Shown here piece by piece: positions 23,354 to 32,339 of a stretch of 32,339 nucleotides of DNA. The position numbers were made by a program, and so were the translations under genes. Origin of the DNA: Thermomicrobiales bacterium. Its GTDB lineage: Bacteria > Chloroflexota > Chloroflexia > Thermomicrobiales > UBA6265. Below the pieces are notes generated by a model, which ran no database searches, was not told the DNA's origin, and was given only the letters and a program-made list of their open reading frames with translations. The DNA is taken from contig JBGTJM010000016.1 of the NCBI GenBank assembly GCA_041745115.1, forward strand, positions 1 to 32,339. The letters run 5' to 3'. The first letter of the stretch is position 1. Each line of letters opens with the position of its first letter.

Positions 23354-24331
23354 ATGCAGGCGCGAATAGGGATGTCCTACGACGATATCAAGCGCATTGA
23401 AGCTGCTCTGTTCTTCGAGCCGCCGATGATGAGACAACGACTGATCCGGTTTGCTGTTCTCATCGTTCTCTCGTCGATCATTGCCACAGGTGGGCTGCTC
23501 AGCAACTCGGTCGCGACCATCATCGGCGCGATGATCATCGCGCCCCTGATGACTCCAATCATGGGGATTGTGGTGGCGTTGATTCTCGGAAGTCGGAGCC
23601 GCTGGACGAAGTCCGCGATTATCGTGACAGCGGGTGTGGCCCTCTCCATTTCAGTCGGCTGGATCATGGCCAAACTAATGCCAGGCGGGTGGAATCCTGC
23701 GAGTTCAGCGCAGATCATCGACCGAACCACTCCGGGGCTGCTTTCTCTAATCATCGCTCTGGCATCGGGCGCTGCAGGCGCATATGCTTTGAGCCGCTCG
23801 GATGTCGCCGACTCTCTGCCCGGCGTGGCAATCGCAATTTCCCTCGTTCCTCCCTTGAATAACGTCGGTATCCTGCTTGCTGAGCGAGAGCGGGATCTTG
23901 CTGCGGGTTCTGCACTGCTGTTCGTAACAAACTTTGCCGCCATCCTTCTCGCAGGTACCGTTACGTTCTTCCTGACTGGACTGGCCGAAGGCGTACATCG
24001 CGAACCGCGGGAGATGCGCAGCTCAATGCTGGCAATCGGGGTGCTTGTCTGCCTCGTGGCCATCCCGCTTTTCGCGAACACAGAAGTGTTTTGGCACAAC
24101 GCGAATCGGGAAGACGCTGCTATCGGAATCGTCAATGAGTGGCTGGCGGATAGCGACTGGGAGGTCTATCGAGTGAGCGTCGACGGCAACGAAGTCGAGG
24201 TGCTGGTGGGTGGTGAAGGCGAGCTTCCACCTGCTGGAGACTCGCTCCTGAAACTCGAAGAGGCTATGAACGGAAACATGGAACTTACGGTGAGAGTCCT
24301 GGGCGTGCGAAAGGTAGTGATTACGACATAA
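23354..24331 (+). CDS. DUF389 family integral membrane protein
   Basis: SD GAGGAGGA lies about 13 nt upstream of ATG 23354. The sequence LSNSVATIIGAMIIAPLMTPIMG...LPGVAIAISLVPPLNNVGILLA is typical of DUF389. Confidence 0.75.
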   Translation: MQARIGMSYDDIKRIEAALFFEPPMMRQRLIRFAVLIVLSSIIATGGLLSNSVATIIGAMIIAPLMTPIMGIVVALILGSRSRWTKSAIIVTAGVALSISVGWIMAKLMPGGWNPASSAQIIDRTTPGLLSLIIALASGAAGAYALSRSDVADSLPGVAIAISLVPPLNNVGILLAERERDLAAGSALLFVTNFAAILLAGTVTFFLTGLAEGVHREPREMRSSMLAIGVLVCLVAIPLFANTEVFWHNANREDAAIGIVNEWLADSDWEVYRVSVDGNEVEVLVGGEGELPPAGDSLLKLEEAMNGNMELTVRVLGVRKVVITT

Positions 24332-24440
24332 CCCAACGCGACTGTGGTTCCCAAGTGCCGCAGGATCGAACGGTCGTTCCGCCGTCAATCGTCAGATGTC
24401 CTGCGACTGTTGACTTGATCAACGTCCCAATCAGCGCTAA

Positions 24441-25082
24441 CTAGCGGCCAACAGCTCCAGCTCTTGCTGCAGGAGTCAAGATCTCCAACCCACGGAAGAT
24501 AAGGTCTACCGAAAGCGCCAGTATCGTGATCGCAACGGTACCTGCCAGTATCATCGATGGGTTGTTTCGGGAGATACCGCTGAAAAGTAATGTGCCCAGT
24601 CCTCCAGCGTTGATCCAGGCGGTAATGCTTGCGAGGCTAATCGTGCTGACGGATGCAATTCGCAGACCTGCAATCAGCACAGGGAGTGCCAGGGGAAGCC
24701 GGACCTTCAGAAATCGCTGCGACCCTGTCATGCCTACGCCTGCTGCGGCTTCCATGAGAAGTGGATCGACGCCAGTAAGACCCGAGGAGATATTGCGCAC
24801 CAGTGCCAGCTGGGCGTACGCCGCCAGCACGACCAGGGCAGGGTCTCTGCCCAAACCGAGGCTTGGAATGAGAAGAGCGAGAAACGCCAGACTCGGAATC
24901 GTATAGATTGCGCCGAGTGAAACAAGCACCGGCAGTCGCAAACGCTGCCAGCTGGCGGCAGCGATTCCAATCGGAATTGCAATGATCAATGCGAGTCCGA
25001 GGGCAAGAAAGCTCAGCTCGATGTGCTCCCATGTCAACTCCAGGACTCGCCGCCAGTTCTCAAACAGATAGTCGAAACTCAT
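24441..25082 (-). CDS. Glycine betaine/choline-type (OpuC/OpuB-like) ABC transporter permease
   Basis: ATG 25082 overlaps the ATPase stop as ATGA. The 213-aa permease has the loop MEAAAGVGMTGSQRFLKVRLPLALP. Confidence 0.85.
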   Translation of the reverse strand: MSFDYLFENWRRVLELTWEHIELSFLALGLALIIAIPIGIAAASWQRLRLPVLVSLGAIYTIPSLAFLALLIPSLGLGRDPALVVLAAYAQLALVRNISSGLTGVDPLLMEAAAGVGMTGSQRFLKVRLPLALPVLIAGLRIASVSTISLASITAWINAGGLGTLLFSGISRNNPSMILAGTVAITILALSVDLIFRGLEILTPAARAGAVGR

Positions 25083-26086
25083 GGTCGCTCAGCTCGTTCT
25101 CTTGCAACGGCCGCGACCTCCCAGATCGTTTCGATATCCACGGTGCCATCTGCCTGGCCGTCCTCTCCCTGGACTGCAACGGCGGTCTCGCCTGTGCGCA
25201 GAAAGTGATCGAGAACCTGACGCAGATCCGTGTCGGCACTCACAACGTGATCGATGCTGCCTGATTCCTCTCCTCTTCGCATCACCGAAGTAACGTCGAT
25301 CAGGCCGAGGCGGCGCAGCGCATCTCCGCCTCCTACGAGGTCGCTTACGAATGCATCGGCCGGATTCGTGACGATGTCAAGCGGTCTTCCCGACTGCACA
25401 ATCTCACCTGCTCGCATAACTACGATCAGATCGGCCAATCGCACCGCTTCATCGATATCGTGAGTGACGAAGAGAATGGTCTGCCCCAATTGCCGGTGAA
25501 TTCTCAGAAGCTCGCCCTGGAGGCGGCTCCGCGTGATAGCGTCGAGCGCCCCAAACGGTTCATCCATCAGCATCATCGACGGATTGACCGCCAGCGCCCG
25601 CGCCAGGCCCACACGTTGCTGTTGTCCTCCGGAAAGCTGAGTGGGATAGCGGTGCCGGTATTCGGACGGAGGCAGACCGATCAGGTCGAGCAACTCATCC
25701 ACTCGGTGATTGATCTCCTGCTTTTTCCACCCCAGCAGCTTCGGCACTACAGAGATGTTGTCTGCAACGCGCATGTGTGGGAAGAGGCCGGTTTGCTGAA
25801 TTACATAGCCAATCCGCCGGCGGAGCTGGGATGCCCGCACCGATTGAATGTCCTCGCCGTCCAGCAGTATTCGGCCATCCGAAGGCTCGATCAGGCGGTT
25901 CACCATTTTGAGCAGCGTGGTCTTCCCGCATCCCGAGGGACCGAGCAACACGACAAACGCACCGGGCTCGACGTCAAGTGACACTTGATTGACCGATGCG
26001 ATCTCTGCCCCGGGGTAGTGCTTTGACACCCGATCAAAGGTGATCGAACTTCCAGGAGCCTGGCTTTGTCGACCGTCGGAATCGAT
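25079..26086 (-). CDS. Compatible-solute ABC transporter ATP-binding protein with C-terminal CBS pair (OpuCA-like)
   Basis: Walker A GPSGCGKTT, signature LSGGQQQRV, Walker B MLMDEPF and a CBS-like C-terminus are present. I extended the 5' end to ATC 26086 because the conserved first strand ITFDRVSKHY lies upstream of the listed GTG 26029. SD GAAGGAG lies 7 nt before the ATC. Confidence 0.8.
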   Translation of the reverse strand: MDSDGRQSQAPGSSITFDRVSKHYPGAEIASVNQVSLDVEPGAFVVLLGPSGCGKTTLLKMVNRLIEPSDGRILLDGEDIQSVRASQLRRRIGYVIQQTGLFPHMRVADNISVVPKLLGWKKQEINHRVDELLDLIGLPPSEYRHRYPTQLSGGQQQRVGLARALAVNPSMMLMDEPFGALDAITRSRLQGELLRIHRQLGQTILFVTHDIDEAVRLADLIVVMRAGEIVQSGRPLDIVTNPADAFVSDLVGGGDALRRLGLIDVTSVMRRGEESGSIDHVVSADTDLRQVLDHFLRTGETAVAVQGEDGQADGTVDIETIWEVAAVARERAERP

Positions 26087-26125
26087 GGTCTTGCTCCTTC
26101 TCGGCTGCAGCGAGCGAACGTATCA

Positions 26126-26152
26126 GACAGGCGCGGAGTTACCGCGCCTGTC
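26126..26152 (-). promoter_or_regulatory. Intercistronic perfect stem-loop between the binding-protein and ATPase genes
   Basis: GACAGGCGCGG-taact-CCGCGCCTGTC (minus strand) is an 11-bp perfect stem with a 5-nt loop. No U-tract follows. Confidence 0.75.
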
Positions 26153-26176
26153 GATTGCTTCGAGAACAGATTGCCC

Positions 26177-27139
26177 CTAGCCGGCGGCGATCATACCTTC
26201 GGCAATAAGAAACTCGCGTGCAACCACGTCGGGTTCCATGGCTTCATCGCCGACCACCTGGCCATTGAGTCCAATCATCACTTCATCGGTGATCATCGGT
26301 GCAAGTGCGTTCAGAATCTCTGCAATCTCGGGATAGGCATCGAGCGCAGACTGCCGTACTACTGGCGAGACGTTGTACGGCGGCCAAAGTGCTGCATCGT
26401 CCTCAAGAACCACAAGGTCGTTGAATGCGATCTCGGCATCCGTTGAAAACGCCAGAACCACGTTCGCGTCGCCGTCAACCAGTGCCTGATACTTGATCCC
26501 TGGAGCAACGCCGTTGACGCTGGCATCGAACTCGCCGTATGCGGTGCGGAGTCCTAGAAGACCGTCTTCTCGCTCCTCAAAATCGACTGGCGCCGAAAAG
26601 ACGAGATTGACATCCGATGCCAATGCCACCAGATCTGAGATCGTGCTCAGGCTGTGCTCTTCGGCGAAGTCCCGCCGAACGGCCAGAGCCTGGGAGTTAC
26701 TCATCGGTGTCCGGTCGAGCCAGTTGAGGTCGAACTGCTCTTTGTACTCATCTCGGACAAAGTTGAACACCGATTCAGCCGTGTCGACAGCTTCCGGAGT
26801 TCCATCGGAACCGTCTCCACTGCCAACTGCATCCTCAACGGACGCTCCGAGCACCACGAGCAAACCGGTGCCGGTGTACTCCGGGTAGATATCCAGCTCA
26901 TCGTTGACCAATGACTCGTGCGCGATGACCGTGCCGCCGAGATTCATCAAACGGTCGACGCTGATCCCTGCATTTTCCAGCAGGAGAGCGTACATCTCGC
27001 CGATAATGATCGATTCCGGGAAGTCCTTGGAACCTACCCGCACTGCGCCATCCTGTGCCAGGGCGGGAGCAAACCGCGCTGATGCCAGAACTGCTGGAAC
27101 CGCGGCTCCTACCTTGATAACCGTTCGACGTGTGACCAT
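26177..27139 (-). CDS. Glycine betaine/choline/osmoprotectant ABC substrate-binding protein (OpuCC/OsmF-like), Tat signal
   Basis: SD AAAGGAG lies upstream. MVTRRTVIKVGAAVPAVLASARFAPALAQD is a twin-arginine signal. VRVGSKDFPESIIIGEMYALLLENAG...YPEYTG is typical of the family. Confidence 0.85.
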   Translation of the reverse strand: MVTRRTVIKVGAAVPAVLASARFAPALAQDGAVRVGSKDFPESIIIGEMYALLLENAGISVDRLMNLGGTVIAHESLVNDELDIYPEYTGTGLLVVLGASVEDAVGSGDGSDGTPEAVDTAESVFNFVRDEYKEQFDLNWLDRTPMSNSQALAVRRDFAEEHSLSTISDLVALASDVNLVFSAPVDFEEREDGLLGLRTAYGEFDASVNGVAPGIKYQALVDGDANVVLAFSTDAEIAFNDLVVLEDDAALWPPYNVSPVVRQSALDAYPEIAEILNALAPMITDEVMIGLNGQVVGDEAMEPDVVAREFLIAEGMIAAG

Positions 27140-27190
27140 GCTGGTCGGCTCCTTTCGCCCATTCAGGGCAATAACACGGGAATATCCCGC

Positions 27191-27937
27191 TCAAGTTGTC
27201 GATGCTGGAGGCGTCACAAGCCGTTCGAGACCTGCCAGCGATACCTCAGCAGTCAACGCAAGTAGAGTAACGGGTACCGCTCCGACAAGCAGTAACCTGA
27301 AGTCATACAGGGTAAGGCCACTCGTGATGAACCGCCCTAAACCACCTGCACCGACAAATGCCGCCAGCGTTGCGCTGGCAATAAGTTCGACAGCGGCGGT
27401 GCGAATGCCAGCAATCATCACTGGCAAGGCGAGTGGTAGTTGAACCTGAAAAAACACCTGAATCTCGTTCATTCCGAGACCTCGGGCGCTCTCGAGAACG
27501 AAGGCATCGACCCCACGCAGCCCTGCGTCCGCGTTGATGATCAGCGGCGGACCTGCCAGAAGTGTCAATGCCACAAACGCGAGGGTAAAGGACGTCGACC
27601 AGAACGGAATGATCTCGCTGATCTGCCTGCGGTATGGATAAAGCAGGAAGAGCACGGCAATACTTGGCACGACCCTTGCGGCAGCTACTGAACCTACCAG
27701 GACCGGCCCGCCTTTCCGCCAGCGAGACGCGAGGACGCCGAGTGGCAGGAAAATCAGCATGGCGAAAAGAAGGGAGTAGAGACTGAGCTCGATGTGCACT
27801 CTGAGTGCTTCGAGAAATCGCTCCTGATTCTCCTGGATGTACTCCCAGCTTTCGCTCAAAAGTTCCACGGTTGCTCTTGTTACCCCTCCCGATAGATTCC
27901 CGGAACCGCATACCACACATTTCATGCCACCATCCAC
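27191..27937 (-). CDS. Compatible-solute ABC transporter permease (second membrane subunit)
   Basis: The protein is homologous in layout to the 24441-25082 product (WEYIQENQERFLEALRVHIELSL versus FENWRRVLELTWEHIELSF). The start is uncertain (GTG 27937, ATG 27925 or an internal GTG). Confidence 0.8.
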   Translation of the reverse strand: MDGGMKCVVCGSGNLSGGVTRATVELLSESWEYIQENQERFLEALRVHIELSLYSLLFAMLIFLPLGVLASRWRKGGPVLVGSVAAARVVPSIAVLFLLYPYRRQISEIIPFWSTSFTLAFVALTLLAGPPLIINADAGLRGVDAFVLESARGLGMNEIQVFFQVQLPLALPVMIAGIRTAAVELIASATLAAFVGAGGLGRFITSGLTLYDFRLLLVGAVPVTLLALTAEVSLAGLERLVTPPASTT

Positions 27938-28060
27938 ATGAACACCGAAGATGACGACTCAGGTATTGATTAACTAGCGGGGTGTGGAGGCTGGAGTGAC
28001 GATAGCCTATCATGGGGTCAAAGGTCATGTTGAGCGAGGACAACTGCGAAGGAGACGACA

Positions 28061-28423
28061 TTGGGAACCGGGCTTAAGATCGCATCGGATTCAGTCAACG
28101 CACTGCCATTGAACGACTCGGCTACCTATTCCGGTATCGACGGAGCAAGTATTCAGACCAGGGAGCTTGAATCCTGGTCAAATGCTAGTGAAAGTGTCTC
28201 AACCGGGGTCTGGGAATGCGAGCCGGGTCGCTTTCAATCGAAGTTTGCAAAACATGGTGAGTTCATTCACATCATTAGTGGCGAACTAGAAGCAACGGCT
28301 GATGACGGCACCGTGACTACGGTGGGCCCCGGCGATTCGATGACCTTTCCTCCTGGCTGGAGCGGCGAGTGGCACGTCAAAAGCCGGTTGCGGAAACTGT
28401 ACTGTGTGTTTCCAGCAGAGTAG
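28061..28423 (+). CDS. DUF861 (cupin_3, EutQ-like) small cupin protein
   Basis: SD GAAGGAG lies 6 nt upstream of TTG 28061. GVWECEPGRF...GEFIHIISGELE...GPGDSMTFPPGWSGEWHV is typical of the family. Confidence 0.75.
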   Translation: MGTGLKIASDSVNALPLNDSATYSGIDGASIQTRELESWSNASESVSTGVWECEPGRFQSKFAKHGEFIHIISGELEATADDGTVTTVGPGDSMTFPPGWSGEWHVKSRLRKLYCVFPAE

Positions 28424-28584
28424 GTGTCGATTTCAGACACGCCTGCAACGCAACATGTTGCTCGCGACTGACAAGATTTTCTGATGATATTGTCAAGTCG
28501 ATTTTGGACTTAGGTGCAATCGAATCCCATTGCGGGCTGTCTTGACGGTTGCACAGGAGTATCTGATCGAATCGGAGTTGCGCA

Positions 28585-29094
28585 ATGCCTATCCCGTTTA
28601 ACTCCAAGGCCGACGTCATAGCTGCAATCGATGACGAGCAATCGAAGTGGAACGATCTCGTTCGTCGCGTCGGGAATGCGCGCATGGAGATTCCTGGCGC
28701 TGCCGGTGATTGGACCTTCAAGGACGTCACCGCCCACCTGTCATTCTGGATGGAACCGGCGCTATTGAAACTGGAATCGCTTGCGAATCAGGATTCGTTG
28801 GCACCTGTGCATCCCTGGCCGCAAGAGCTCACCGACCCAGACTCCATCAACACCTGGGCATACGAGCAAAGCCGGGACCGATCGGTTGATGACGTGCTAT
28901 CTGAAGCGAATGACGTGTTTATCCGGATGCGAACCGCATGTGAAGCCATTCCAGAGGAGACCTTGAATGCCCTCGACCTTTTCGACTGGCAGAACGGCGA
29001 GCCTTTTTCGCAGTGGATCGTAGACAGGCGCATGTTCAACCACTACTACCTTGAGCACGAAGAGGACATCAGGCACTGGATGGCCAGTCGCTAG
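28585..29094 (+). CDS. ClbS/DfsB (DUF1706) or DinB-like four-helix-bundle protein
   Basis: The N-terminus PIPFNSKADVIAAIDDEQSKWNDLV and the segment WTFKDVTAHLSFW resemble the ClbS/DfsB family. The subfamily is uncertain. Confidence 0.55.
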   Translation: MPIPFNSKADVIAAIDDEQSKWNDLVRRVGNARMEIPGAAGDWTFKDVTAHLSFWMEPALLKLESLANQDSLAPVHPWPQELTDPDSINTWAYEQSRDRSVDDVLSEANDVFIRMRTACEAIPEETLNALDLFDWQNGEPFSQWIVDRRMFNHYYLEHEEDIRHWMASR

Positions 29095-29146
29095 AAGACG
29101 TTGGGATCCGTTGTCGCTCCCGTACCTTCGCTGAAGGTGAGCAAGC

Positions 29147-30553
29147 TCATTCCAGAGCGTTCACGATCTGAGACACTAGCGACTCGACATGCCCTTCGTG
29201 CTCTGGCTTCATCAGAACGCTTCGAAATGTTGTCAGAATGTCGGTATCCCACTCCAGATCGTGGCTCCTTAGTTGACTCGGTGAGACCTGCAGGGTTGCC
29301 AGATAGAGTGGATTCTGCCGATCCTGCATCAGCTTTTCGAAGACAGCATTCGTGAGGTCAGAGATCGTGGAAGTTCTCCGAACCCCGAATGCGGGCAACG
29401 GATAGAAACACACGATATCGAGCTCCGGTTCGACCACAAGCTGGAGGCGGTCACTCTCATTGACCAGATCAGCCATTCGTCGCGCTGCCAGCAGGGTTTT
29501 CTGCAGTATTGGCCCGAATCCTGACTCGGCCTTAAGCGGAAAAGCCTGGAGAGTTGCCCAGAGCGCTGCCGCGGCGGCTCCAGGTCGAGAGCATTCCAGG
29601 CTGATCTCGCCGAGATGCAGGTCGCCCGAAGTGAAATAGGTGTATGGCGAATCATGCTGGTAGAAGCGTCCCACGCTTGCGTCCCGAAACAGTATCGAAC
29701 CGCACCCGTACGGCTGCAGTCCGTGCTTGTGCGGATCGACGACGACGCTATCTGAATCTGCGATAGCGTTGAATGGCTCAAGCGGAAAGTTGGTTGGAAC
29801 AGGCACTGGCGATGCGCCGTTTTGCGCCAGCGTGGCGAAAAAGCCCCCATAAGCCGCGTCGACATGCACTCTTGCGTCAAATGCTTTCGCATTCGCCACG
29901 ATCTCATGAATCGGGTCTATTGCGCCAAACGACGTGGTGCCTGCTGTGGCTACGACGGTTCCGATTTCTCCACGTCGCAGTTCTGTTTGGAGATGATCGG
30001 TGTCCATTCGGCCACGTTCATCGACGTTGATCTCGATACTCGCGACACCCAGGAGGTCACACATTCTGCGGTGGGTGTAATGAGCGGCCTCGGAAAACGC
30101 AATTGCCTTGCGTGGGTGAGTTTCACGCGAGATCCACAGTGCTTCCAGGTTGGCAATCGTTCCGCTCGATGTCAGGTGGCCCAGGGAGCTCTCCGGTTCA
30201 TATCCGAACATCGCGGTGAGCTGTCGAATGACTTCGATTTCCAGAAATGACGTGGCTGGCCCCCCATCGAGGGCATGAGCGTTGGGGTTGATTCGTTGAG
30301 CCATTGCATATGCAGCGAGAGCAATTGGATGGGGCGGTTTGAGCATTTGCCCCGCATAGCGGGGGTGAAAGAAGGGATAATTGTCGTGCAGGCGCTGGCC
30401 AAGCTCAGCAATGATCCTGCTGGCATCTTCGGGCGCAATCTGAAGCGCAGGATCCAGATCGAAGGTCGGCCAGCCGGCCTCCCAGTCAGCGATGAGTTGC
30501 TGACCCTGAATCAGCAGTTCGAGAATCTCGGTCTTGTTTTCATGAGTGGCCAG
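29147..30553 (-). CDS. Group II pyridoxal-dependent (amino-acid) decarboxylase, 5' end extended to a putative CTG start
   Basis: HLTSSGTIANLEAL, HVDAAYGGF and DPHKHG (PLP lysine) are present. The conserved FFHPRYAGQM motif straddles the listed ATG 30346, so translation must begin upstream. The frame is open up to the MFS stop, and SD AAAGGAG lies 8 nt before CTG 30553. Confidence 0.75.
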   Translation of the reverse strand: MATHENKTEILELLIQGQQLIADWEAGWPTFDLDPALQIAPEDASRIIAELGQRLHDNYPFFHPRYAGQMLKPPHPIALAAYAMAQRINPNAHALDGGPATSFLEIEVIRQLTAMFGYEPESSLGHLTSSGTIANLEALWISRETHPRKAIAFSEAAHYTHRRMCDLLGVASIEINVDERGRMDTDHLQTELRRGEIGTVVATAGTTSFGAIDPIHEIVANAKAFDARVHVDAAYGGFFATLAQNGASPVPVPTNFPLEPFNAIADSDSVVVDPHKHGLQPYGCGSILFRDASVGRFYQHDSPYTYFTSGDLHLGEISLECSRPGAAAAALWATLQAFPLKAESGFGPILQKTLLAARRMADLVNESDRLQLVVEPELDIVCFYPLPAFGVRRTSTISDLTNAVFEKLMQDRQNPLYLATLQVSPSQLRSHDLEWDTDILTTFRSVLMKPEHEGHVESLVSQIVNALE

Positions 30554-30556
30554 TGC

Positions 30557-31909
30557 TCAATCTCCTTTGACGGCGGAAACGGAAGCAGGTGTCGCCACGA
30601 CCTCTGGGTCGCTTGATTCGCCGCTATGCTTTCGGCGGCTGAATTGAGCAACCTCGTCATCGGTCGGCAGCAGCATCGCGAGAAAGATCGCTCCTGCCGC
30701 AATCACAGCCCAGGCGCGCATCGCATTCTGAATTCCGTAGACATCTGAGAACGCTCCCATGACCGGCACACCAATCGCACCCATTACAAATCCCAGTCCG
30801 AGAATAAGGCCAGATGCCACACCCTGGCGACCAACCATCATCTGCTGGGCCATGACGAGCAGAAGCGGACCTGTCGACGCAGCGAGCAACCCTATGAGCG
30901 CGCCCGTCACGAATCCAGGGCCACCGGGGAACTGGGCGAACAGCAGGATCACAGGTACAGAAAGCACCGATGACCAGACCAGCATTGGACGTCGTCCATG
31001 TCGATCAGCTAGTGATCCGACGCCTATTGTGCCCAGCGCGCTGGCTATCAGAACGGTAGTGGAAAGGAGTGCGTAGTAAAACTTCCCATACCCTAGCTCC
31101 GCGTACCAGAGCGGAATGAAGGCACTGATGCCAAAGAGAACCCAGGCCCTGAGCATCATCAGAGAGATGACGACCGACATGGGTTTCCAGGGGATCGGTG
31201 GTGCCGATCCATCCGCCGACGATCGCCGGTGCAATCGTTGGGAGATAGTACGCATTTCGAAGAGCAACCAGATCGCGATGAGCGCTCCTGGAACGATGAG
31301 CGCAATGGTGCCGCCGAGTCCAAAGAGCACAAAGATCACCGCCCCGATCAGGGGCCCGATCGCCACACCCAGGGTCCCGCCGGTGACATAGAGCGACATC
31401 GCCACGTTGCGCTGACCGTCGGCAATAACCGCATAGGCATTCATCGCCCCCATTGGGTGGTAGGCACCGGAGCCGATTCCCGCCAGGCCAGCAAGAACGA
31501 GTAAAACCGCTAAGTTGGGCGCCCAGCCGAGCAGTGAAAACGTGACGGCTGTCCACATCAGACAGAGACCAATCAGCCTGGTTCCTCGCCGATCAGCGAT
31601 GTAACCAAAAAGTGGCTGGGTGAGCGCCGCCATCCCGCTGTATGCCAGGGACACCAGTCCCACCGTCTTGAGATTGAGATCGAACTTGTCGGTGAGAAGG
31701 GGATAGAGGATTGGCAGCACGCCGGCGTACATGTCTACCGTGAAGTGACCCAGCATGAGGGTCATGAGGGAACGATTTCTCAGGACATCGAGGCGCCCGA
31801 CATTCCTGGGCTTGTTCTGTTCAGTCACGGCAAACTGCTGAGCCGCCTCTCGACAACGCTGGCACTCGGATGAATAGACGCACTCCGCAACCTCAGCAGC
31901 CTGCGACAC
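30557..31909 (-). CDS. MFS transporter (12-TM type)
   Basis: The protein is hydrophobic throughout, starting SLMTLMLGHFTVDMYAGVLPILYPLL, with an MFS-like loop ADRRGTRL between TM2 and TM3. The start is uncertain: GTG 31909 or an internal GTG about 29 codons downstream. Confidence 0.8.
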   Translation of the reverse strand: MSQAAEVAECVYSSECQRCREAAQQFAVTEQNKPRNVGRLDVLRNRSLMTLMLGHFTVDMYAGVLPILYPLLTDKFDLNLKTVGLVSLAYSGMAALTQPLFGYIADRRGTRLIGLCLMWTAVTFSLLGWAPNLAVLLVLAGLAGIGSGAYHPMGAMNAYAVIADGQRNVAMSLYVTGGTLGVAIGPLIGAVIFVLFGLGGTIALIVPGALIAIWLLFEMRTISQRLHRRSSADGSAPPIPWKPMSVVISLMMLRAWVLFGISAFIPLWYAELGYGKFYYALLSTTVLIASALGTIGVGSLADRHGRRPMLVWSSVLSVPVILLFAQFPGGPGFVTGALIGLLAASTGPLLLVMAQQMMVGRQGVASGLILGLGFVMGAIGVPVMGAFSDVYGIQNAMRAWAVIAAGAIFLAMLLPTDDEVAQFSRRKHSGESSDPEVVATPASVSAVKGD

Positions 31910-31982
31910 CTGCGACGGTCCATCCTACCAGCGCAGCTTTCTCAGAACAATCTGCGCTGTTCTCCAAGCAATTCAGGTCAAT

Positions 31983-32001
31983 TGCGTGGGTAGTGCGTGG
32001 G
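31983..32001. promoter_or_regulatory. Direct repeat TGCGTGGG-tag-TGCGTGGG (11-bp phasing), candidate transcription-factor site
   Basis: Read directly. It lies 74-92 nt upstream of the annotated MFS start, in the divergent intergenic region. Confidence 0.4.
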
Positions 32002-32044
32002 AATCGCTCATGTTCACTCAGCCCCGTCTGCCACAAACTGAGAG

Positions 32045-32125
32045 TGCGGTGACAAAAGGATGCGCCTGGACGCCAGCCCAGCCACATCACAGCCAGCATT
32101 GGAAACCCGGGCGCATCCGTCACCG
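32045..32125. other. Long imperfect hairpin (about 20 bp of pairing) in the divergent intergenic region
   Basis: GCGGTGAC-aaaa-GGATGCGCC-TGG ...37 nt... CCG-GGCGCATCC-GTCACCGC. Neither strand has a U-tract after it. Confidence 0.6.
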
Positions 32126-32229
32126 CCCTGTTGTGGACCTGAATTCACGGTGATCGGTGGCCAGGTGCCAGAACTCGAACGAACCAAACCGTTTTTCGAG
32201 TCAGGTAGAGGTTGGCGAAGGAGGCTAAG

Positions 32230-32339
32230 GTGGAGTCGTTTATACCACAGATCCGAATTGAGGCGAACATCGGTTTCTACCAGACAACCAAAGGTGCGCT
32301 GGTCGTCCTGGCAGGACATGATTTTGTTGGAGCGATTTT
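32230..32339 (+). CDS. 5' end of an unidentified protein-coding gene running off the window
   Basis: SD GAAGGAGG lies 5 nt upstream of GTG 32230. The frame is open to the window end (VESFIPQIRIEANIGFYQTTKGALVVLAGHDFVGAI). It is too short to appear in the ORF track. Confidence 0.4.
   Translation, partial: MESFIPQIRIEANIGFYQTTKGALVVLAGHDFVGAI

Follow-up and report, generated by a model that had tools for sequence, protein, structure and literature searches.

Where does a protein begin when the frame that encodes it offers no ATG, GTG or TTG ahead of a conserved N-terminus? The question is raised by a gene for a pyridoxal 5'-phosphate (PLP)-dependent decarboxylase on the minus strand of contig JBGTJM010000016.1 from a Thermomicrobiales bacterium (assembly GCA_041745115.1); the whole stretch analysed, 32,339 nucleotides (nt) long, is called the window here. 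The gene lies directly behind one for a major facilitator superfamily (MFS) transporter, and on the minus strand the junction between the two reads ...GTC AAA GGA GAT TGA GCA CTG GCC ACT CAT GAA AAC AAG... A sequence-only reading had remarked that the two frames are contiguous across a single TGA and that the decarboxylase has no canonical start, and it had listed four options: initiation at the CTG coupled to termination of the MFS gene, read-through of the TGA, a sequencing error or a decaying gene. The follow-up described here suggests, at slightly better than an even chance, that the CTG at 30553 is a real and functional start yielding a protein of 468 amino acids. That 30553 is the true start position of the gene, and that the 70 codons following the TGA are its N-terminus, is very probable.

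An open frame without a canonical start

All coordinates given in the sequence-only reading hold on the minus strand. The TGA that ends the MFS gene occupies 30557-30559, 3 nt upstream of the decarboxylase start position; the codon between this stop and the CTG (30551-30553) is GCA (30556-30554). A Shine-Dalgarno (SD) sequence, AAAGGAG, is located at 30562-30568 within the last MFS codons, exactly where it had been placed, with an 8-nt spacer to the CTG (ATTGAGCA). The stretch 30556-30347 comprises exactly 70 codons, with zero stops and zero ATG, GTG or TTG, all in the frame shared with the MFS gene, and the peptide they encode ends ...NYPFFHPRYAGQ-M, as had been described. The first canonical start in frame is ATG 30346-30344, from which a mechanical listing of open reading frames (ORFs) gives a product of 399 amino acids.

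How unusual is such a run? The in-frame frequency of ATG, GTG and TTG is 5.9% in the window's genes, which gives a P of about 0.015 per single 69-codon stretch. Other genes of the window contain internal start-free runs of 65-140 codons, and the ortholog in the nearest relative is likewise without ATG, GTG or TTG in the same 68 internal N-terminal codons. The absence of canonical starts over the N-terminal codons is unremarkable; the open frame is simply coding. Since the ortholog is also start-free internally and such runs occur elsewhere in the window, the anomaly reduces to one base at 30553, and judged from these alignments the only oddity is the first codon, with C for T in what would be the ancestral start codon.

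The missing N-terminus

Do the 70 codons belong to the enzyme? The sequence-only reading had proposed that the 399-residue frame is truncated and that the codons upstream encode its genuine N-terminus, and profile and structure alignments, invariant residues and homolog lengths all agree. When the 469-residue stop-to-stop translation is compared with PF00282 (Pyridoxal_deC), residues 34-384 match profile positions 8-372 of 375 with 102.4 bits against a gathering cut-off of 27, placing the protein in this family, and solved group II decarboxylases from the PDB align from residues 34-59 of the extended protein. In a search space of 5.8 billion proteins, the top 120 homologs measure 449-515 amino acids and cover 95-100% of the extended query. 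An alignment of 21 sequences shows that W25, L52, L56, N59, P61, F62, P65, Y67, A68 and Q70 are invariant within the extension; D274, P275, H276 and K277 are also invariant, K277 being the PLP-binding lysine. The ATG taken as the start by ORF finding (30344-30346, minus strand) encodes M71, an internal Met that is invariant in 21 of 21 aligned sequences and closes the motif NYPFFHP.YAGQM, a block that is complete only when the 70-codon extension is translated. Because M71 sits inside this invariant motif, a product made from 30346 would begin mid-motif. The public gene call for the decarboxylase (P0001) is 385 amino acids long, starts at ATG 30304 (30302-30304) and also lacks the conserved N-terminal segment. 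Both the 399-residue ORF and the 385-residue call are artefacts of permitting only ATG, GTG and TTG as starts. Gene calling of this kind misses 68 N-terminal codons (30347-30550, minus strand), whose coding nature is marked by PF00282, the PDB alignments, the invariant residues and the branch substitutions described below. As proposed here, the full coding sequence (CDS) runs over 29147-30553 on the minus strand, with 468 amino acids plus a TGA stop, equal in length to the nearest ortholog (P0002).

Where in this region could translation begin? The expectation that the start must lie close to the MFS stop is borne out by the orthologs, whose canonical starts map there. Near-cognate codons further inside the extension were considered as starts and rejected: ATT (codons 11 and 16), CTG (codons 14 and 15) and ATC (codon 22) all lack an SD, and the later ones also leave too few residues ahead of the invariant W25.

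Orthologous start codons

What do the relatives carry at this codon? The nearest one is P0002, a protein of 468 amino acids with 81% identity, encoded in the soil-metagenome metagenome-assembled genome (MAG) GCA_965611265.1 (locus L001/L163; L002 carries an identical copy). Aligned as DNA, the relative reads GGGGGAT TGA GTA TTG AGC ACT where the window reads AGGAGAT TGA GCA CTG GCC ACT. The TTG start of the relative thus occupies the codon position of the CTG in the window, in the same layout of a stop plus one codon, and the relative's SD at the equivalent place is AAGGGGGA. The spacing of +3 nt in the window (TGA GCA CTG) is found again in L001 (TGA GTA TTG, as in L002 and L163) and in L006, a locus with 64% identity where the junction is TGA GGT ATG. 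Other junctions vary. In L008, L164 and L165 the TGA is followed by 9 nt and an ATG, the P0004 locus has a 2-nt gap and a different frame, L166 has TGA TAA, 13 nt more and an ATG (+16 nt, again another frame), L007 has TGA TAG ... ATG (+30 nt), and in L085, L012 and L003 the genes are separated by gaps of 140-397 nt. The MFS orthologs examined all terminate in TGA.

A wider set of 162 related loci, drawn from metagenomes and GTDB genomes, includes 144 with a complete N-terminal region. In every one of these (144/144) an ATG, GTG or TTG precedes the NYPF motif by 35 codons or more; only the window departs from this. The comparison of orthologous loci that the sequence-only reading had called for shows that TTG or ATG stands at the position of the CTG and that neither the frame continuity nor the missing canonical start is conserved. 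The CTG sits at the same offset after TGA-NNN at which orthologs hold canonical starts, with an SD within 5-10 nt upstream and with no in-frame canonical start that would preserve the conserved N-terminus.

Three acidobacterial loci (L036, L042 and L052) were examined as possible start-less parallels and set aside, a TTG or ATG still being present upstream of the conserved W-E. In L036 (2490-2530) the TGA of an unrelated upstream gene lies in the same frame (GGG GAT TGA ACC ACG ACT...), with a TTG 10 codons on that still precedes the conserved W-E, and this locus was judged not to be a true parallel. A separate peculiarity of the family is seen in P0005 (L165:4001-5548; 515 amino acids), in which about 50 extra residues are inserted into the loop that follows the AYGGFF motif.

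Proposed CUG initiation next to a stop codon

How might a CUG serve as the start of this gene? In the proposed mechanism, the decarboxylase gene would come second in an operon that packs it tightly behind the MFS gene, starting at 30553 and not at 30346, with its ribosome-binding site AAAGGAG inside the 3' codons of the MFS gene and its start one codon past the MFS stop (TGA-GCA-CTG). The ancestral start, which is TTG in the nearest relative and ATG in a more distant one, would have undergone a single T-to-C change to the near-cognate CTG. Initiation with formylmethionyl-tRNA at the CUG may still make the 468-residue protein, the 30S subunit or 70S ribosome being positioned by the SD 8 nt upstream and initiation being fed by ribosomes that terminate at the adjacent TGA, 3 nt away. 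Among the four options listed at the outset, CTG initiation coupled to MFS termination has the best support, with TTG (L001) and ATG (L006) at the same codon in orthologs and with the TGA-NNN layout and an SD in the MFS tail kept at both of these junctions. The proposed CUG start, reached by a one-base switch, adds one more example to a rare phenomenon that is already known, in an otherwise ordinary gene.

Near-cognate starts have precedents in Escherichia coli, where infC and pcnB begin with AUU and the AUU of infC is conserved and autoregulatory. The decarboxylase resembles both in being a conserved, selected gene whose only possible start is one base off AUG and stands behind a normal SD, the outcome in such cases being low but real initiation. 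Unlike infC, it has a CUG, which is not conserved (1 of 145 loci), and it is known from its sequence alone. The change also resembles the start-codon switches treated statistically by Belinky, Rogozin & Koonin 2017 (PMC5622118), in that a single base differs at an orthologous start between close relatives; in that study UUG-to-CUG switches in closely related genomes amounted to 1 of 2,468 UUG starts (4e-4). Here, in contrast to that statistical treatment, the switch leaves no canonical alternative for 70 codons, which is why annotation fails at this gene.

Is the junction suited to coupling? Coupling by termination and reinitiation works efficiently only where genes overlap or lie very close together (PMC10666635; PMC12548453), which the distance of +3 nt from stop to start fits. 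The two genes are co-oriented and a few nt apart (+2 to +30 nt in most close relatives), the spacing expected of a coupled pair. Like the coupled pairs of Huber et al. 2019, 2023 (PMC6728339, PMC10666635), they combine this orientation and the 3-nt distance with an SD in the 3' end of the upstream gene. Coupled genes most commonly overlap (-4 or -1 nt), unlike the pair here at +3 nt, and the aid that coupling would give to the CUG is conjectural. Expression from the CTG is probably lower than from the TTG of the ortholog, because in E. coli CUG initiates at about 0.1-3% of AUG and UUG at 10-100% (Hecht et al., bioRxiv 10.1101/063800).

Selection on the decarboxylase gene

Is the gene decaying? 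Between the window and L001 the ratio of nonsynonymous to synonymous substitution rates (dN/dS) is 0.155 for the decarboxylase, 0.138 for the neighbouring DUF1706 gene, 0.055 for the MFS gene and 0.04-0.09 for the ATP-binding cassette (ABC) transporter genes nearby. Nine shared syntenic genes align to their orthologs as single full-length segments (dN 0.02-0.12), with no frameshift or premature stop. Relative-rate tests with six outgroups count 18-26 unique amino acid changes on the window side and 16-21 on that of the relative (chi2 at most 2), and show no acceleration in the first 70 residues of the window's decarboxylase. When single-base codon changes are polarised with three outgroup loci, the window branch carries 28 synonymous and 4 nonsynonymous changes and the branch of the relative 34 and 4; of the changes on the window branch, 5 synonymous and 0 nonsynonymous ones fall within the first 70 codons. 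No signal of pseudogene decay was found by dN/dS, relative rates or polarised counts, and purifying selection has acted on the extension, as on the rest of the gene, along the window's own branch. None of these tests can put a date on the T-to-C change at 30553.

A second gene without a canonical start

Is the decarboxylase alone in this condition? Twelve start codons were compared between the window and L163, and 30 ORFs of the window were surveyed from the upstream stop to the first canonical start. Taken together, the two comparisons flagged one further gene, that of an osmoprotectant-type ABC ATPase (25079-26100, minus strand). Its SD, GAAGGAG, lies at 26100-26094. The relative reads GAAGGAGC ATG ACC ATC at the start and the window GAAGGAGC AAG ACC ATC, so that AAG (26092-26090) stands where the ortholog has ATG, and the ATC at 26086-26084, 7 nt past the SD, is the candidate start (GAAGGAG-caagacc-ATC; region 26027-26125 on the minus strand, L163:14440-14530 in the relative). 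The frame is open for 31 codons without ATG, GTG or TTG. The first canonical codon, GTG 26029, falls after the first beta-strand of the nucleotide-binding domain in alignments with AlgS and MalK, and the public call for this ATPase (P0121; 316 amino acids from GTG 26029, 26027-26029) starts there, with the conserved N-terminal segment missing. Several relatives met in the homolog search are called at 288-318 amino acids, that is, truncated.

Four loci from other assemblies (L167, L168, L169 and L171) have the conserved block GS[SA]I.F..V.K.YPG in an open frame without a canonical start. Each has an SD 6-7 nt ahead of a near-cognate codon that precedes the block by 11-13 codons (by 16 in L171): AGGAGG-ccggcc-ACG in L167 (1339-1500), AAAGGAG-actggcc-ACG in L171 (836-952) and AAAGGAG-taacgcc-ATT in L168 and L169 (1306-1500). 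Other homologs of the ATPase start with Met, Val or Leu at that position. In the MAG GCA_019637585.1 the recorded ATPase P0134 (MEFDRV...) begins at an ATC codon (L170:1201-1203); at that locus an in-frame GTG and an in-frame TTG lie 16 and 10 codons upstream of the ATC. Could avoidance or methylation of CATG be behind the ATG-to-AAG differences? CATG is not depleted, with observed/expected values of 0.86 in the window and 0.81 in L163.

This pattern looks like recurrent near-cognate initiation of the ATPase subunit in a Thermomicrobiales clade, and conserved genes without canonical starts appear, from these alignments, to be real biology there. The recurrence of the start-less ATPase across independent assemblies therefore gives higher confidence that the CTG of the decarboxylase is real and used. 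A broader proposal would be that the lineage routinely uses near-cognate starts, under selection, for operon-internal genes behind strong SDs: CUG at the decarboxylase gene and, at the ATPase gene in no fewer than five related loci, AUC, AUU or ACG. As a general habit this is distinctly unlikely. Such a habit might serve to tune how much of a subunit or enzyme is made, or might reflect an initiation fidelity (discrimination by initiation factor 3) looser than in E. coli. Just upstream of the ATPase gene, between it and the gene for the substrate-binding protein, there is a perfect stem-loop with an 11-bp stem (26126-26152, minus strand; GACAGGCGCGG-TAACT-CCGCGCCTGTC), conserved in L001 with a different loop, which may be an intercistronic stabiliser or an attenuator setting the ratio of binding protein to ATPase.

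Alternative explanations

What else would produce a CTG at this position? Several points weigh against its use as a start. The CTG state occurs in 1 of 145 loci, which is also how a wrongly called base, a minor allele or a newly arisen loss of function would appear, and the case for initiation is built on nucleotide and protein comparisons. CUG is a poor start in E. coli, the only organism with a systematic measurement (bioRxiv 10.1101/063800). The predicted SD pairing, computed with an assumed generic anti-SD that may not be the host's own, is about equal in the window (-9.7 kcal/mol) and the ortholog (-10.7 kcal/mol), so there is no sign of compensation for the weaker codon. A recent null allele would also pass the selection tests, because those tests cannot date the T-to-C change. 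That the change is real, recent and (nearly) abolishes expression, as a fresh null allele and first step of gene loss, is unlikely. Such an allele would be in keeping with the 0.1-3% initiation of CUG, with the canonical start kept by 144 of 144 relatives, which implies selection against its loss, and with the lower conservation of the decarboxylase than of its MFS partner (81% vs 94% amino acid identity). Set against it are the similar nonsynonymous shares of the window and ortholog branches (4/32 vs 4/38, none in the first 70 codons), the 468 codons without stop or frameshift and with all invariant family residues intact, and the preserved SD and coupling layout. The idea of a decaying gene is accordingly disfavoured in its general form by dN/dS, relative rates and polarised counts, and what is left of it is a very recent event. 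Is the C then simply wrong? That TTG is the true codon, and that the C stems from an error in consensus or base calling or from the allele of a minor strain in the metagenome assembly, is rather unlikely. Only a single base separates the CTG from a canonical start, the nearest ortholog has TTG there, the protein cluster has one member, and no second contig of the species was found that could confirm the C: scans of metagenomes and of GTDB genomes for the same species returned nothing closer than the 81% ortholog, the next being at most 66%. On the other side, the nine full-length syntenic genes with no frameshift or premature stop show that the assembly is not error-prone, a random error would need to strike one specific base, and the start-less state of the ABC ATPase gene recurs in four independent assemblies. 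The suggestion of a sequencing error has gained no positive evidence and survives at this low probability.

The two remaining options, read-through and an indel, are together very improbable. A one-base deletion in an A-run (AAAA for AAAAA, 30540-30537) would hide a real start at an ATG that the sequence-only reading did not mention. This ATG (30543-30541) is out of frame and followed by AAAA (30537-30543 in all, minus strand); a fifth A would bring it into frame and give an N-terminus of plausible length, MKNKTEILELL... The proposal is nonetheless highly improbable: the ATG is missing from the ortholog, whose start maps to the CTG instead, the nearest SD is 19 nt away, which is no usable distance, the surrounding sequence is not a classic slippery heptamer, and nine neighbouring genes are without indel errors. 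ATG 30543 was rejected as a start on these grounds. Could ribosomes instead read through the MFS TGA to make a transporter-decarboxylase fusion, so that the decarboxylase needs no start of its own? The frames are continuous across the single TGA in the window and also in frame in the close-spaced relatives L001, L006, L008 and L164/L165. That two or three independent lineages have spacers that keep the frame (3 or 9 nt) is, however, within chance, and other frames are found in L166, the P0004 locus and L003. L166 (TGA TAA) and L007 (TGA TAG) have a second in-frame stop straight after the TGA, L003, L012 and L085 have gaps of 140-397 nt, and the top 120 homologs do not exceed 515 amino acids. 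RNA structure, a selenocysteine insertion sequence or another read-through element was sought at the junction, where the fold is unremarkable (z=-1.0 vs shuffles), and Rfam families have no match anywhere in the window. With frame continuity not conserved, no fused homologs and no stimulatory RNA element, the fusion was rejected; it is scarcely credible.

The transporter gene and the function of the pair

The longest ORF of the MFS gene runs over 30557-31909 on the minus strand, from GTG 31909 to ...KGD-TGA, and the protein matches PF07690 (E=1.7e-38) and is 94% identical to its L001 ortholog. A different start, GTG 31828, common to the ortholog, is more likely to be the true one judging from the alignment; in this region (31811-31909, minus strand) the window has AAG 31813 where the ATG of the ortholog is called, and the shared GTG lies five codons upstream. 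The locus of GCA_965611265.1 is syntenic over about 12 kb, comprising the MFS, decarboxylase, DUF1706 and cupin genes and four OpuA-like ABC genes; the block compared with the window is about 9 kb (window 23354-32337, L163:6686-17202). Its transporter proteins are much the better conserved, with amino acid identities of 94% for the MFS protein and 92-96% for the ABC components, against 81% for the decarboxylase, 80% for DUF1706 and 84% for the cupin. Just past the MFS gene, the relative and the P0004 locus have genes for an EamA transporter and an Orn/Lys/Arg-type decarboxylase (PF01276); the window stops short of this region.

What does the decarboxylase act on? By its profile matches it is a group II PLP enzyme with no assigned substrate class. 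Among NCBIfam equivalogs the best model is MfnA (149 bits against a cut-off of 299), so that no substrate class is reached, and the PanP, tyrosine, DABA (diaminobutyrate), histidine and glutamate decarboxylase models are all far under their cut-offs. Among solved structures the enzyme comes closest to decarboxylases that are uncharacterised or diverse. Judged by the source names of its homologs, the family is spread over Thermomicrobiales, Acidobacteriota, Salinibacter and actinomycetes; it is widespread without an MFS gene, which stands immediately upstream only in Thermomicrobiales-type loci. The sequence-only reading had likened the pair to the modules GadC/GadB and OxlT with oxalyl-CoA decarboxylase, in which, as here, a membrane transporter gene is co-transcribed with a decarboxylase gene. 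Unlike GadB, the enzyme scores 39.7 bits with TIGR01788 (cut-off 380.4), and unlike an OxlT-type oxalate/formate antiporter the MFS protein scores 27.1 bits with TIGR00890 (cut-off 374.85). The likeness is merely operational because these equivalog scores are low and the MFS linkage is limited to Thermomicrobiales-type loci, and the idea of a shared functional module is reduced to an analogy.

Implications

What does the locus teach? At the practical level, the automatic call (385 amino acids, or 399 by ORF logic) drops the conserved N-terminus, and expressing or modelling it would give a dead enzyme; the correct decarboxylase CDS would be 29147-30553 (468 amino acids). More broadly, this is a clean natural case of a gene without a canonical start in which the position of the ancestral start is known to the base and selection is still visible, and it is suited to testing how much a CUG yields when it is aided by an SD and by a ribosome terminating 3 nt away. 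The recurrent ABC ATPase case prompts one to ask whether counts of near-cognate starts in Chloroflexota are too low. If such starts were indeed in routine use, standard gene callers would consistently report a class of genes in these genomes as too short.

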